Shown: piece after piece, positions 4,719 through 33,586 of the stretch | Position numbering within the stretch: the stretch's first letter is position 1 | Layout of the letters: each line of letters opens with the position of its first letter | IMG/VR virus record: IMGVR_UViG_3300029775_000005 | Span: 1-42,752 of that record | Reading direction: 5' to 3' (one strand) | DNA length: 42,752 nucleotides | Source of the DNA: a virus | The notes under the pieces: model-generated | What the model was told of the DNA's origin: nothing | The model's input: the letters and a program-made list of their open reading frames with translations, nothing else | The model's database searches: none | Made by a program: the position numbers and the translations under genes

Positions 4719-5035
4719 GCGACCGCCCCCTGGAGCCAGCCCCGTTCCTCCTCCGTGAGGGGCTCAAAAATCCGGGGGTGGAGGTCGGTGGTCTTCGTCC
4801 GATTCTGTGCGCCGCGTTTCATGCAGCCGTAATACCGGAGCGCCACGGAGATCCGGGCCTGCATGACGGGCCGGCGCGCGATCAGGTCGTCGGGGAAATA
4901 CCGCCGGAGGTCGGGGTCGTCGACGATCCGGTCGTAGAGGGTCAGCCGGCCCAGGCAAGTGGCGCCCTGGTAATACCGTTGCACGGCCAGTTTCACGACG
5001 GCCCGGAGGGTCTCGTTCGTGGGTTGGGCGGCCAT
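4715..5035 (-). CDS. Hypothetical protein, 106 aa, paralog of 4212..4718
   Basis: VVKLAVQ...LHPRIFEPLT; TGATG overlap at 5033-5037. Confidence 0.65.
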   Translation of the reverse strand: MAAQPTNETLRAVVKLAVQRYYQGATCLGRLTLYDRIVDDPDLRRYFPDDLIARRPVMQARISVALRYYGCMKRGAQNRTKTTDLHPRIFEPLTEEERGWLQGAVA

Positions 5036-5439
5036 CAGGCCACCTCGTATCGCTGCCGGTCTTTCAACTCCTGCTGCTTGCCGGCGTTCCAGCCGGCGAC
5101 GTCCTGGAGGTAGCCGGTGACCCGGCTGATCTGCATCACGTCGTGGCCGCCGCAGGTCGGGCAGACGGGTTCGCCGCAGAGGGGGCAATAGGCGATCCGC
5201 TCGACGACGTCGTGGGGGCAGGGGTGATCTAGCGGGCACCGGATCTCGAGGCCGGTGGTCTCGCCGCAGACCGGGCAGGCCTCCCCGTCGACGAGGGCCT
5301 GGTGGGGGATCCCGGTGGTCAGGCATAAACGGCAGCGGTAGGTTCGGTCGGCCTTGGGGATGCGGTCGAGGACCGCCCGGCTCGGATGGGCGCCGGCGAG
5401 GAGCGAGGCTATCCGCTCGTTCTGGTTCGTCTCAGTCAT
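5035..5439 (-). CDS. Stand-alone class III ribonucleotide reductase (NrdD) C-terminal module: zinc ribbons plus glycyl-radical loop
   Basis: CRLC, CPVC, CPLC, CPTC, then ISRVTGYLQDVAGWNAGKQQELKDR, the RxxGY...WNxGKxxExxDR signature of NrdD C-termini. Confidence 0.85.
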   Translation of the reverse strand: MTETNQNERIASLLAGAHPSRAVLDRIPKADRTYRCRLCLTTGIPHQALVDGEACPVCGETTGLEIRCPLDHPCPHDVVERIAYCPLCGEPVCPTCGGHDVMQISRVTGYLQDVAGWNAGKQQELKDRQRYEVA

Positions 5440-24146: not shown

Positions 24147-24674
24147 TCACTCCCGGACGATCTCCGGGTCGTAGGTGGCATATCGGCCGGCCCGCCAGTC
24201 GTCGATGAGATCCTGATAAAATGCGTGCTGCCAGCCGGCCTCGGCGATCAAGTCGTATCGCCGGGTGATCCGGTAGAGCAGCCGGCGGAGGGCCGATGCC
24301 TCGATCCAGTCGTGCATCCGGTCGGGGTTGTGCTGGCCGTCGTCGAGCAGGTGGAGGAGTTCATGCGTCGCCCGGAGGTTCAGGGTGCGCCGGTCGTCGC
24401 CCGGGCAGACCATGATCGAGGCTCCTCCGCGCCAGGCGCCGCCGCGGATATGCGTGGTGCGGCCGTCCTGCGGGAAGGCATAGAGGGTCCCGGGCTCCGG
24501 GACCAGGGGCCAGTCCTGCCAGGTCGGCCCCCATCCCCAGGCGGGGTCGGGGTATCGGAGCCGGGCCGGCCGGCCGGTGGTGGTCGTGACCTGGAAGATC
24601 GGGGGCAGGCGGATCGGGTGCTGCAGGTCGAGGTCGGGGTCGAGGTAGAGCCGAATGTGGGCGGTCGGGGTCAT
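24147..24674 (-). CDS. Zinc metallopeptidase (zincin) late protein, 175 aa
   Basis: HELLHLLDDGQHNPD motif; start reassigned to 24674 using the promoter element. Confidence 0.7.
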   Translation of the reverse strand: MTPTAHIRLYLDPDLDLQHPIRLPPIFQVTTTTGRPARLRYPDPAWGWGPTWQDWPLVPEPGTLYAFPQDGRTTHIRGGAWRGGASIMVCPGDDRRTLNLRATHELLHLLDDGQHNPDRMHDWIEASALRRLLYRITRRYDLIAEAGWQHAFYQDLIDDWRAGRYATYDPEIVRE

Positions 24675-24714
24675 GCAGGAGGGGTCGGGGCCCGGGGATA
24701 AAAGGGAACGTCGG
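24672..24714 (-). promoter_or_regulatory. Late-promoter element, variant copy 7
   Basis: CCGACGTTCCCTTTTAT upstream and CCGAC at -14. Confidence 0.7.
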
Positions 24715-24820
24715 ACCGTCATATCGGCCCTGTGGCGGCCGCAAGCCGGGCGGAGTATGTCCAGCATGGCCCGGTGCACGATCGGGGATTTTTGCCCCTA
24801 TGGGGGGGCTATCAGGTGCG

Positions 24821-30381: not shown

Positions 30382-30422
30382 GCCTGTGGCGTCGGCCGGA
30401 GGCGCTTAAAAAGGAAAGTCGG
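30379..30422 (-). promoter_or_regulatory. Late-promoter element, copy 10
   Basis: Consensus copy before ATG 30381. Confidence 0.85.
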
Positions 30423-30492
30423 AGCCGGGCGGCGTTGAGGGGGCGGGGGCGATCCGTTACGTTTTTTTGGGAGGGTGGCTCATACGATCCCT

Positions 30493-30654
30493 ATGGCAGC
30501 AGCAGCTGATGGGACGTTGTGCCCACTATTGTATACCCACTCTTTGCCCCGGCGGCCGGATCCCTGCGTAGGGTCGACCTGCGTGCTCTGGGATCCCGCT
30601 CGCCAGGGGTGCAAGTTGAATTTCGCCCTGGATAAGATCATTGCCGGCCGGTGA
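30493..30654 (+). CDS. Small antisense Cys-rich protein, 53 aa
   Basis: My translation: MAAAADGTLCPLLYTHSLPRRPDPCVGSTCVLWDPARQGCKLNFALDKIIAGR; four Cys; below the ORF-track cutoff. Confidence 0.55.
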   Translation: MAAAADGTLCPLLYTHSLPRRPDPCVGSTCVLWDPARQGCKLNFALDKIIAGR

Positions 30655-30709
30655 CGGCTGGAAAAACGAGGGGCGGGGCGGCGTGGCAGGCCCTCTGGGT
30701 GCCCCGCCC

Positions 30710-30838
30710 TCAGTACACCTTTCCAGGTTTCGGTTTCGGTTCTTCGTCTTCCGCCCGGGTGATGACGATATCGTCTCCGCCCCAGCAGAACCTGTCCGCG
30801 GGGTCCGGGCGCCTGGGTTTCTCATCGTTTCCTGTCAT
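30710..30838 (-). CDS. Small peptide, 42 aa
   Basis: MTGNDEKPRRPDPADRFCWGGDDIVITRAEDEEPKPKPGKVY; starts 5 nt after the upstream stop and is followed by a hairpin plus T-run. Confidence 0.5.
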   Translation of the reverse strand: MTGNDEKPRRPDPADRFCWGGDDIVITRAEDEEPKPKPGKVY

Positions 30839-30843
30839 GTCCG

Positions 30844-31179
30844 TTAGTCCTCCTGTCCACCTGGTAGGGCCGGCAGATCGGTCTCAACCTGCCAGCCCGG
30901 GTGATTTATCGCTGTCGTCCTGGCGCAATCGAGGATCCAGTATGCGTCCTCGGAGCCGGCGACGCCAGGAACGAACGACCAGGGGCCGGCCTCGATCCGG
31001 GCCTGCACCTCCTGGTAAATTTTGCCCGGGCGGCCGGTGACGGTAGTCTCGATCTCGTCGGGGTGGTGAGGGTCGTCGCCGGTAACCGTGTAGGTGATCC
31101 GGACCTTATCCCCGAATAGGGCGACGCTCCAGGTGTCCATAGCTATCATCAGGTGTTCCTCCTTTATATTATCATCCAA
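30844..31179 (-). CDS. Small acidic protein, candidate immunity protein for the MuF toxin domains, 111 aa
   Basis: Overlaps the MuF stop by 8 nt; function inferred from position. Confidence 0.6.
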   Translation of the reverse strand: MDDNIKEEHLMIAMDTWSVALFGDKVRITYTVTGDDPHHPDEIETTVTGRPGKIYQEVQARIEAGPWSFVPGVAGSEDAYWILDCARTTAINHPGWQVETDLPALPGGQED

Positions 31180-33586
31180 GGCCGGCCATAATTGTCAAAA
31201 TGAACGAGAAATACTCCGGATCTGTCTCAAGCAGGGCCTTGGCCTTGTGGGCGGTTCTGAAATGTTCTAGACCGGTGCTGACCGCCTCGCCGGCCCGGAT
31301 CGCCCGGAGATCGCCCTCCTTCAGGGCGCCGACCAGGTTCTTGTTCCCGGGGATGAGGGGGTAGACCTTGCCCGCGTAGGGGTGGACGGGGTCGAACCCG
31401 GCAAAGGTGATCTCGTCGGCCCGATAGCCGTGATCCGGATACAGGTCTTTCATCTTCCGGAGCTTGAACCCGTTATCCCGGGCCCGGGCGGCCAGCATGG
31501 CGTTATGGGCGTATCGGCTGTTCTGGTGCTCGAGATGATGCCCGTACTCGTGCAGGAAGATGCGCCAGGTATCCAGTTCGCTCCGGCCGGCCGGGAGAAC
31601 GATCTGGCCGGCGTTGTAGAATCCTCTGCCGTCTCCCGTGCTCTTGATCACGACCTTGACGGGGCCGGCTCGCCGGATCGCGTCCTGGTGGACCAGGCCG
31701 GGCAGCAGGTTTTTGATGTGGTTTTGCAGGAGGTCTGCTCCTCCAGCCGGCCCGTCGACCGAGACCAGGCCGTCGCTGATGAGGGCCGATCCCATCTTTC
31801 GGATCTCCTCCCGGGAGACGTCCCGGCCGTAGATGATCCGGGTCGCCAGGGTGCGGGGGTCGGCCCGGTAGCCGGGCTGCTTCGCGGTCAGGGTGTCGAC
31901 GGCCTCCCGGGTCCAGCCGATCCGGGTCTTGAGCCAGGGTTCCCACTCCTTCAGGCTGAACCCGCCCGGGCCCAGGTGGTCGGCCGGTTCGAGGACGATC
32001 TCCCGGAAGACTTGCGGGCCCCGATCCTCGTCGATGATGTCGGCGACACGCCATTGCCGGCGGCGACCGAGGATGATCTCCGCCTCCGGAGCGATCGCGC
32101 CCTTGTTGCCGACGAAGAGGGCGTGCTCTCCCTGCCGGGCCTGGTAGCGGAAGATGATCCGCGTCGGTTTCCCCGTCTTCGGGTCTCGGGGGTTGGCGTA
32201 GGAGAACCTGGCCGCAGTCCCCTGGTCATAACTCCAGGAGGTGTAGGCCTTGTCGAGGAACGTATCGCCGACCCGGAGGTCGATCTCGTCGTGCTTCCCC
32301 TTGATCCCGCGCCAGAGGGTGCGATCTTGAGCCAGCCGGCTTTTGGCCATCCCGCTCTCGAGCAGGGTGATGTTCTCCCGGACGCGGTCCGGGTCGAGGC
32401 GGTTGGCGGCGCAGGCCTGCAAAAAGGCCTCCTCGCCTTTATGGAAATACGCATTTATGGGGGCGAAATGCATATCCGTGAAATTACTGACCGCTAATGC
32501 CTCCGAACCGGTCAGCCGGGAGGTCGCATCAGTGACCGGGCTGTCCTCCCGCGGGATCTCGGCGGCCAGGTTCCGGGGGCTCTCCCGGCCCCAGATGTTC
32601 TCGGCCTTCGGTTTCGCGGCGGGTTTGAACGGCTGTAGGGCTTCGAGCGGGTCGGGCCTCAGGACTTCCGGGGGCTTGACCGTCTTCCCTGTGGCCACTT
32701 TCGCGAGGTATTTCGCCTCGTCGCTGTCGGGGTCGAGACCCGCTGCAGCCTCCTTCGCCCACCGGATCCGTTCGGTCTTGTAGACCTCCTCCGGGGTATC
32801 GAGGTTCGGGTCGCCGTAGTAGGGCGCCGGCCGGCACCGGCACCGGGGCTCGCCCATGACTTCGAGCGCCAGAGCCTCGTCCGGGCTGCCGATGACGAAG
32901 ATCCGGCCGTGCATCGCCAGGTGCCGCAGCCGGGTCCGCTCGTCGGCCACGCAGGCATATCGCCACGCCTTGATGCCGGCTGATTCGTAGCCGGCGATGT
33001 GGCCCTGTGCGTAGGCCCTCTTTGCGGTGGTCTTTGTCAGGATATCGGCGTAGTCCTTTGTCGATATCGTGACGTTCCGCTTGATTCGGTGCTTTGTGAC
33101 GGTCATCTTGCCGTTCGGCGCGACCTTGATCTCCCGGCGCCATTTCCCCTTGTTCTCGAAGGGGATCCCGTCCTTGAAGTAGCTGTCCAGCCGGCGGGTC
33201 AGGGCCGTCCGGATCTCCGGGTAACTCCGGCCGCGCTCGATCCCGTCGTGCAGGTCCTCGAGCAGGCCGTTGGCGATCGAGCCGAACGTCCCGGAGATCT
33301 CCGCGGCCGCCTGCTCCATCACCGGCTCGAGCCGGGCGGTGGGGACGGGGCTGTCCCGGATCCGGAGCCCGAGGTGCTTGAAGGCCTGTCCTGCTCCGCC
33401 CTCGTAGGCCCAGGCGGCGTGGCCGGCCATCAGGGAGGCGACGCGGTCGGCGGTCTCCTGGGTCCGGTGCTCGATGAACGCCCGGACCGCCCGTTCGAGT
33501 TCCTCCTGGGATGCGGTCGCGAGGTCCTGGTGCTCCAGGTCGGCCAGGAAGGTCTCGATCTCCCGGAGCAGGGTTGCGAGGCTCAT
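31172..33586 (-). CDS. MuF (SPP1 gp7-like) minor head protein with VIP2-type ADP-ribosyltransferase and C-terminal zinc peptidase domains, 804 aa
   Basis: DERTR...HGRIF...PRCRC (MuF); LWRG...YTSWS...EAEIIL (R-S-ExE ART); HEYGHHLE...GKVY...EAVSTGLE (zincin). Confidence 0.88.
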   Translation of the reverse strand: MSLATLLREIETFLADLEHQDLATASQEELERAVRAFIEHRTQETADRVASLMAGHAAWAYEGGAGQAFKHLGLRIRDSPVPTARLEPVMEQAAAEISGTFGSIANGLLEDLHDGIERGRSYPEIRTALTRRLDSYFKDGIPFENKGKWRREIKVAPNGKMTVTKHRIKRNVTISTKDYADILTKTTAKRAYAQGHIAGYESAGIKAWRYACVADERTRLRHLAMHGRIFVIGSPDEALALEVMGEPRCRCRPAPYYGDPNLDTPEEVYKTERIRWAKEAAAGLDPDSDEAKYLAKVATGKTVKPPEVLRPDPLEALQPFKPAAKPKAENIWGRESPRNLAAEIPREDSPVTDATSRLTGSEALAVSNFTDMHFAPINAYFHKGEEAFLQACAANRLDPDRVRENITLLESGMAKSRLAQDRTLWRGIKGKHDEIDLRVGDTFLDKAYTSWSYDQGTAARFSYANPRDPKTGKPTRIIFRYQARQGEHALFVGNKGAIAPEAEIILGRRRQWRVADIIDEDRGPQVFREIVLEPADHLGPGGFSLKEWEPWLKTRIGWTREAVDTLTAKQPGYRADPRTLATRIIYGRDVSREEIRKMGSALISDGLVSVDGPAGGADLLQNHIKNLLPGLVHQDAIRRAGPVKVVIKSTGDGRGFYNAGQIVLPAGRSELDTWRIFLHEYGHHLEHQNSRYAHNAMLAARARDNGFKLRKMKDLYPDHGYRADEITFAGFDPVHPYAGKVYPLIPGNKNLVGALKEGDLRAIRAGEAVSTGLEHFRTAHKAKALLETDPEYFSFILTIMAGLG

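Follow-up and report, generated by a model that had tools for sequence, protein, structure and literature searches.

The locus examined here raises the question of what a viral minor head protein does with two enzyme domains fused behind its MuF domain. The gene encodes an 804-amino-acid (aa) fusion of a MuF head-morphogenesis domain, an ADP-ribosyltransferase (ART) and a C-terminal zincin-type metallopeptidase. It lies on the minus strand of IMG/VR virus record IMGVR_UViG_3300029775_000005; the complete record (42,752 bp) was analysed and is called the window below, and all positions are those of the window (Table 1). The original prediction had read this locus as an archaeal MuF polymorphic toxin with two effector domains and downstream candidate immunity genes. 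We find both enzyme domains with intact catalytic motifs, and consider it fairly probable that the protein is packaged in the virion as a polyvalent effector anchored by MuF. The virus is contractile-tailed, and its host is most likely a Methanoculleus-like methanogen.

A MuF head protein with two enzyme domains

The MuF domain was assigned by two curated profiles whose thresholds were both passed (PF04233 Phage_Mu_F, E = 7.9e-10, 39.9 bits against a cut-off of 29.6; TIGR01641, 43.9 bits against 39.65), and the gene lies in the packaging module adjoining the portal gene, the position by which MuF minor head proteins are recognised. Behind it, PF03496 (ADPrib_exo_Tox) matched at 28.8 bits (gathering cut-off 23.4). 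The closest solved relative of this ART, and the sole solved one found by sequence, was Vis (4xzj), an arginine-specific toxin of Vibrio splendidus (E = 1e-4 to 6e-4). When aligned to Vis, LWRG (from residue 424, about nucleotide (nt) 32317) corresponded to YRG, YTSWS (from residue 448) to FTSTS, and EAE (from residue 501) to EAE. The R-S-ExE residues were retained in four intact relatives (P0004–P0007), and by its motifs the ART domain is catalytically complete. A single profile, PHROG 595, covers MuF and ART together, so the two-domain fusion belongs to a known family; the annotation of that profile as 'head maturation protease' is probably a mislabel. In a further relative, from ENA (P0008), the gene is out of frame through the ART (aligned to ~residues 440–590 of the window protein), with STS and ExE lost, and the frame is restored before the zincin; either a decayed ART or an assembly error may account for this.

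Residues 540–804 gave nothing significant in Pfam, PHROGs or NCBIfam. When 1.84 billion representative proteins were searched exhaustively with phmmer, 188 relatives were found (E ≤ 1e-3), in which the module is nearly always C-terminal; HExxH was present in 149/149 of those examined, mostly ~100–130 residues before the C-terminus. In the family alignment H679, E680, H683, Y737 and D789 were invariant, and E686, R703, E725, G739, K740, Y742, E767, S770 and G772 were conserved in at least 90%. An AlphaFold2 model built from this alignment (pLDDT 90.8, pTM 0.90) matched Pro-Pro endopeptidase PPEP-3 (Z 9.2), the catalytic domain of anthrax lethal factor (LF; Z 8.8) and PPEP-2 (Z 8.5). Nearly all of the remaining structural matches listed were zincin metalloproteases, and Foldseek gave the same top families with weak E-values, the nearest folds including the LF-like domain of Certhrax. 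Membership of the M34 family was not reached by sequence (PF07737 ATLF matched 1/65 family members, E = 0.044), and a profile search of the PDB found LF only at E = 0.5. From the conserved catalytic residues and the fold match we conclude that the C-terminal domain is, by alignment and model, a distant, head-protein-associated zincin with all catalytic residues. The three domains of the original prediction thus hold: MuF by Pfam and TIGRFAM scores above cut-off, the complete R-S-ExE ART by PF03496 and the alignment with Vis, and the HEYGH zinc peptidase by an invariant family HExxH and the zincin fold. HEYGH lies at residues 679–683 (nt 31538–31552), and mapping of residues to nucleotides showed that the positions predicted for the three motifs were right. 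The MuF-like protein of the Halorubrum phage Hardycor1 (656 aa; L083:5412-7382) has HEFGH ~170 residues past the MuF core, placed relative to MuF as HEYGH is in the window protein; as a candidate member of the zincin family it was rejected, since it aligned over the motif alone (probability 17%).

The company that the module keeps bears on its role. Among 104 family members scanned with Pfam, MuF was present in 30 and Phage_min_cap2 in 3, and no further family recurred; many carriers had no recognisable Pfam domain besides MuF. Two long members were portal-MuF-zincin fusions, one with a weak PARP-like match, and within the members scanned the module was combined with PF03496 solely in the window protein's own 50% cluster. 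The original prediction counted two effectors, and both enzymes are indeed present with intact motifs; the zincin, however, is widely found on MuF and portal-MuF proteins, and the published reading of such modules is self-processing (PMC5512222). A self-processing protease is, by analogy, at least as likely as a second toxin. A true dual effector would use the zincin as a second host-directed protease, like LF, and not for self-processing. Its nearest folds do come from toxins or from endopeptidases that are secreted, namely LF, PPEPs and the LF-like domain of Certhrax; the alleles of its N-lobe are just 45% identical, as expected for an arms-race surface, and Iyer et al. allowed such a role for the zincins of polyvalent proteins (PMC5512222). 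We nevertheless hold this only as a tentative possibility, because a module so common on MuF and portal-MuF proteins, often with no other Pfam domain, fits housekeeping processing or release better. If the zincin does cut the fusion, the linker between MuF and ART is a candidate cut site, given its 13% proline, its VKPP motif (residues 303–306), invariant in 6/6 sequences, and the fold likeness of the zincin to Pro-Pro endopeptidases; this is no more than a lead.

The operon, its small genes and their variation

Eleven genes of the window start leaderless behind a conserved element whose TTTTTAA(G/C) lies at -31..-24 relative to the ATG. They have neither a Shine-Dalgarno (SD) sequence nor a -10 hexamer, and operon-internal genes carry GGAGG at -8 to -14; the minus-strand gene starts of this two-class survey were 8283, 10444, 16197, 18329, 18622, 24077, 25704, 30381 and 35213. 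Before operon-first genes the element spans roughly 45 nt (CCGAC...TTTTTAA(G/C)...CCGAC). A 32-nt late element occurs in six copies with at most 2 mismatches (0 expected by chance), and was not found elsewhere in genome or viral contigs. One copy stands before the portal gene, and a GC-rich hairpin with a run of five T follows the last small gene, its z-score being just -1.4 in this GC-rich DNA. From the late element, the SD-led internal genes and the hairpin with T5, we read the operon as late element, portal, MuF-ART-zincin, 101-aa gene, 42-aa gene and stop signal, so that the MuF-ART-zincin gene is predicted to be late and co-transcribed with the portal gene and both small genes. The 280 nt between the hairpin with T5 and the next late element (30423–30700) hold no open reading frame (ORF) with a coding signal; there was no Rfam match in them or anywhere in the window, and they fold no better than shuffles (z -0.9). 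A sigma-70-like site at 31171–31198 was rejected as being at chance level.

Late expression inside the head operon would also suit enzymes that act solely in the producing cell or head, where they might modify or trim virion proteins, with no delivery to the next host, and the label 'head maturation protease' of PHROG 595 points the same way if it is not a mislabel. We regard this as quite improbable, as the virus has a separate protease/scaffold-like gene and the characterised ExE-type ARTs (T4 Alt, Bxa) act on host proteins.

Table 1. Features of the MuF locus and its surroundings in the window.
Feature	Position	Strand	Details
TerL	35276-36640		packaging module, then portal, then MuF
Late promoter-like element	35223..35254	-	CCGAC-TTTCC-TTTTTAAG-...-CCGAC; ends 9 nt before portal ATG
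Portal protein, 539 aa	33594..35213	-	leaderless first gene of operon; PF06074 Portal_Mu, E 6e-12; phrog_113
MuF-ART-zincin fusion protein, 804 aa	31172..33586	-	
MuF / SPP1 gp7 head-morphogenesis domain	32831..33262	-	residues 109-252
Proline-rich linker	32531..32776	-	residues 271-352; 13% Pro
R-S-ExE ADP-ribosyltransferase (by motif)	32030..32530	-	residues 353-519; R426, S450-W-S452, E501-A-E503
Zincin module (by alignment and model)	31175..31969	-	residues 540-804; helical N-lobe and catalytic core with H679-E680-xx-H683, Y737, E767
101-aa acidic protein	30844..31149	-	pI 4.4; small alpha/beta fold; AAGGAGG at -14..-8
42-aa conserved micro-protein	30710..30838	-	GGAGGA at -16..-11
GC-rich hairpin, then T5; terminator-like	30662..30712	-	begins at 42-aa stop codon; minimum free energy -30.7 kcal/mol
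Late element, exact copy	30391..30422	-	before 331-aa protease/scaffold-like gene
Protease/scaffold-like gene, 331 aa	29386-30381	-	ATG 30381

Directly behind the fusion gene, the original prediction had placed a 111-aa ORF overlapping the MuF stop codon. That length is the product of a TTG extension: the 17 homologues (71–98% identity) are all 98–103 aa long and begin MI.MDTW, and these starts, with the ATG at 31149 behind AAGGAGG, give a gene of 101 aa that begins 22 nt after the stop codon, with no overlap. The 42-aa peptide behind it proved to be a genuine conserved gene with its own GGAGGA, the 90% cluster holding 9 members, including WP_282570275.1 (Methanoculleus sp. 7T). The 101-aa homologues lie on contigs of the same sizes as those of MuF homologues (7,256, 44,337 and 25,600 bp), and contigs of the 42-aa cluster include the same sizes; synteny of MuF and the small genes in relatives rests on these matching contig sizes. 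An AlphaFold2 model of the 101-aa protein (pLDDT 85.7) had a best PDB fold match of just Z 4.4, a search of BFVD gave nothing, the ESM Atlas had no hit for the protein, and no relatives of the protein are known outside its virus group. Neither small ORF matched a known family or fold, immunity families included, in Pfam, PHROGs, NCBIfam, PDB or BFVD. The candidate immunity genes thus stand as small conserved ORFs directly downstream, and nothing ties either to a known immunity family.

We asked how the fusion varies. Five relatives, 71–90% identical to the 804-aa protein, all have the same three domains (5/5). Identity is 88–98% over the N-terminal 100 residues, 81–96% over the MuF core and 73–89% over the ART of the intact relatives; the zincin N-lobe occurs as two alleles (96% versus 45% identity), and identity over the last 59 residues is either 92% or 59%. 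The effector half is a recombining mosaic without domain replacement. That the locus is polymorphic in the strict sense is not supported: in the survey of C-termini that the original prediction had suggested, close relatives keep MuF-ART-zincin and differ by allelic mosaicism only. Shorter or split forms of MuF were looked for and none turned up. The MuF protein or its alignment, TerL and the 101-aa family were also searched against contigs from viruses, genomes and metagenomes, and gave no usable related locus. In three relatives the 101-aa protein is 88, 87 and 71% identical, the adjacent peptidase C-lobe 92, 92 and 59%, and the ART 89, 73 and 76%. Divergence of the 101-aa protein thus follows the C-lobe and not the ART, a pattern that in three comparisons cannot be told apart from plain linkage. 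The 42-aa protein is near-invariant across its cluster while the enzyme domains vary.

These data bear on a classical polymorphic toxin–immunity module, in which the ART, the zincin or both would arrest the growth of non-lysogenic competitors and the 101-aa and 42-aa proteins would be the cognate immunity. Such an arrangement would suit the conservation of the two small ORFs, their SD sequences and their co-transcription with the toxin gene, as well as the mosaic make-up of the effector half (45–76% identity, against 88–98% in the MuF half). It also has precedents: an ORF of <150 aa follows 89% of MuF toxin genes but 25% of short MuF genes (PMC5576092), and a small binding immunity protein adjoins Bxa (PMC11699363). 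The Methanoculleus contig that holds the 42-aa homologue is 530 kb long; this suggests a provirus and would suit a temperate life. We still judge the module unlikely. There is no domain swapping among the five close relatives, no integrase or repressor was recognised in the genome (Pfam, PHROG and NCBIfam scans), and no ADP-ribosylhydrolase lies near the MuF locus; moreover, the identity of the 101-aa protein tracks adjacent DNA and not the ART, and the 42-aa protein is almost invariant where the enzymes vary.

The virus and its host

The genome (66% G+C, nearly every gene on the minus strand) encodes, by Pfam and PHROGs matches, the head genes TerL, a Mu-type portal, MuF, a coiled-coil protease/scaffold-like protein and the major capsid protein (MCP), in the order TerL-portal-MuF-protease/scaffold-like gene-MCP, and a contractile (myovirus) tail module with sheath, tape measure, baseplate J and gp25. 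No matches were found among 50,697 phage records by tblastn with MuF, portal and MCP or by megablast with 10 kb, and an ESM Atlas search with MCP returned merely generic phage capsid clusters. When the proteome was compared with those of Hardycor1, MMP17 and Riverbug, TerL alone was common to them, with a weak baseplate J match to MMP17 and Riverbug.

An archaeal host, as claimed in the original prediction, is very probable in view of the leaderless TATA-like starts and the Methanoculleus homologue of the 42-aa protein. In archaea, the usual geometry is a TATA box ~27 nt ahead of a leaderless start. The homologue, WP_282570275.1 ('hypothetical protein [Methanoculleus sp. 7T]'), is encoded on a 529,812-bp contig, and Methanoculleus is an archaeon of the Methanomicrobiales; a Methanoculleus-like methanogen is the most likely host. 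The 90% clusters of the other window proteins checked had no named NCBI member. A haloarchaeal host was rejected on the proteome, which is not acidic (pI 4.3–10; MuF protein 8.8).

The same lack of acidity would suit a bacterium of high GC content, such as a member of the Deinococcus-Thermus group, in which case the gene would be an ordinary bacterial MuF-ART. TerL is 29–32% identical to TerL of Thermus/Meiothermus phages, baseplate J matches such phages weakly, the DNA methylase is 44–49% identical to alphaproteobacterial genes, and the hairpin with its T-run is like a bacterial intrinsic terminator. A bacterial host nonetheless seems improbable to us: the leaderless starts have no -10 hexamer, no peptidoglycan hydrolase or endolysin-type domain appeared among the genome's Pfam matches, the 42-aa cluster includes the Methanoculleus sp. 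7T protein, the best TerL match is a Halorubrum virus, and portal, MCP and MuF had no tblastn match among the phage records.

Elsewhere in the window, the CcrM-like N6/N4 DNA methylase (251 aa) abuts a 270-aa ORF (38818–39630) with a 4-nt overlap (region 38066–39630, minus strand). The other full-length members of its 90% cluster are 463–469 aa long, so the gene looks split here, or the relatives hold a fusion. A 210-aa ORF (24147–24779, minus strand) had no Pfam, PHROG or NCBIfam match at the thresholds applied, and no Hjc-like resolvase was seen among the Pfam matches at E ≤ 1e-3. A match to PF13597, the C-terminal part of the anaerobic ribonucleotide reductase NrdD (E = 2e-13), was tentatively assigned to a 134-aa ORF (5035–5439, minus strand); this putative NrdD-part protein is kept in relatives and would point to an anaerobic host.

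Proposed role and known systems

In the reading that we favour, MuF would draw the protein into the head at the portal in low copy number, and the packaged copies would enter the next host cell together with the DNA. There the ART may ADP-ribosylate arginines of host proteins, like T4 Alt and the MuF toxin Bxa. The zincin would most likely cut the fusion itself, perhaps in the proline-rich linker at VKPP, and so free or activate the ART; alternatively it would serve as a second host-directed protease. The 101-aa protein, and perhaps the 42-aa protein too, are candidate inhibitors or chaperones that would keep the enzymes quiet in the producing cell. A packaged, injected ART with zincin-dependent release or activation is favoured because of the known or predicted roles of the MuF, ExE ART and polyvalent zincin families.

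Several points weigh against this reading. We infer packaging, injection and enzyme activity of the fusion protein by analogy; the small ORFs belong to no recognisable family or fold, and the cleavage site is a guess. PF18818 (MPTase-PolyVal) matched 4/65 members of the zincin family (best E = 0.018) and did not match the window domain. TerL is equally close to Thermus phages and haloarchaeal viruses (Halorubrum virus Hardycor1), the methylase is closest to alphaproteobacterial CcrM-like genes, and the case for the host rests on promoter geometry and one 42-aa homologue.

More speculative is the idea that an injected, protease-gated arginine ART modifies RNA polymerase, TBP or TFB and so switches the cell to the viral TATA-type late regulon, with the 101-aa protein as a novel type of inhibitor by which both enzymes are kept inactive until they are delivered. 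We rate this a long shot; if true, an ART acting on archaeal transcription machinery would be the first described case of an archaeal virus that injects an enzyme for host takeover. To our knowledge, descriptions and tests of MuF-fused toxins and of polyvalent head proteins are confined to bacterial viruses, and protein ADP-ribosylation by viruses in archaea is essentially unstudied. With a catalytically intact MuF-ART-zincin in a probable Methanoculleus virus, the biology of injected effectors would reach into the archaea, and zincin self-processing of polyvalent proteins would gain a compact three-domain test case. Methanoculleus species are key methanogens in anaerobic digesters, where viral factors disabling them would be of applied interest.

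T4 Alt is a head-packaged, injected ADP-ribosyltransferase. The window protein resembles it by clade and context, with an R-S-E clade ART at a myovirus head and presumed delivery with the DNA; Alt, in contrast, has neither a MuF fusion nor a protease domain.

M34 zincins share the residue order HExxH, then Tyr, then Glu, and this order is common to the window domain, which is also alike in fold to LF and PPEP-1, -2 and -3 (Z 8.5–9.2 over 143–156 residues). It differs from them in having 11–16% identity and no significant sequence or profile match, in the variable insert that its family carries between Tyr and Glu, and in being presumably cytoplasmic and virion-borne, whereas the M34 zincins are secreted.

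With MuF polymorphic toxins the window protein shares an N-terminal MuF adjoining the portal gene, a C-terminal toxin-type enzyme domain of a kind found in other toxin families (the ART behind MuF), and an ORF of <150 aa directly downstream (101 aa after 22 nt, then 42 aa). The ART of Bxa is of the ExE type, like that of the window, and modifies arginine; Apk2 is another characterised MuF toxin. Bxa is a characterised arginine-specific MuF-ART with adjacent immunity genes Bsi/BAH (PMC11699363). Jamet et al. (2017) described MuF polymorphic toxins of temperate bacteriophages in a survey of bacteria and their phages, in which ARTs made up 14% and metallopeptidases 20% of the set (PMC5576092). 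MuF proteins are present in few copies at the portal and can take cargo into the head (PMC5576092, PMC5512222). Unlike these toxins, the window protein has two tandem catalytic domains and not one, its virus probably infects a methanogen, no ADP-ribosylhydrolase gene accompanies it and no domain is replaced among close relatives. MuF-toxin phages are temperate; no integrase was recognised in the window, and a homologue of its 42-aa protein lies on the 530-kb Methanoculleus contig.

The polyvalent proteins of Iyer et al. (2017) likewise hold several enzymatic domains in one head-associated polypeptide, and MuF, ART and zincin-like metallopeptidase are all hub domains of their network (PMC5512222). 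The zincin hub was linked to LF by profile search, and its predicted role is autoprocessing, with the polypeptide cut either ahead of delivery or afterwards (PMC5512222); the window zincin is also LF-like. Polyvalent-protein ARTs are mostly of the H-Y-D type (PMC5512222), whereas the window ART is R-S-ExE, the window zincin falls below significance against the Pfam MPTase-PolyVal model, and the window protein is a small one of 804 aa and three domains.

Fusions of Alt/VIP2-family ARTs to MuF have been published (PMC9503650), and ARTs are on record for two haloarchaeal viruses (PMC8651126); in the literature we found no description of MuF toxins in methanogen viruses. MuF-ART and MuF-metallopeptidase fusions and polyvalent MuF/ART/zincin hubs are thus already published for bacterial viruses (PMC5576092, PMC5512222, PMC9503650). 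What is new here is the tandem of ART and zincin on MuF, the probable Methanoculleus host of such a fusion, two conserved orphan small proteins, and a head-protein-specific zincin family (188 representative clusters) that lacks a Pfam model and merits family definition.

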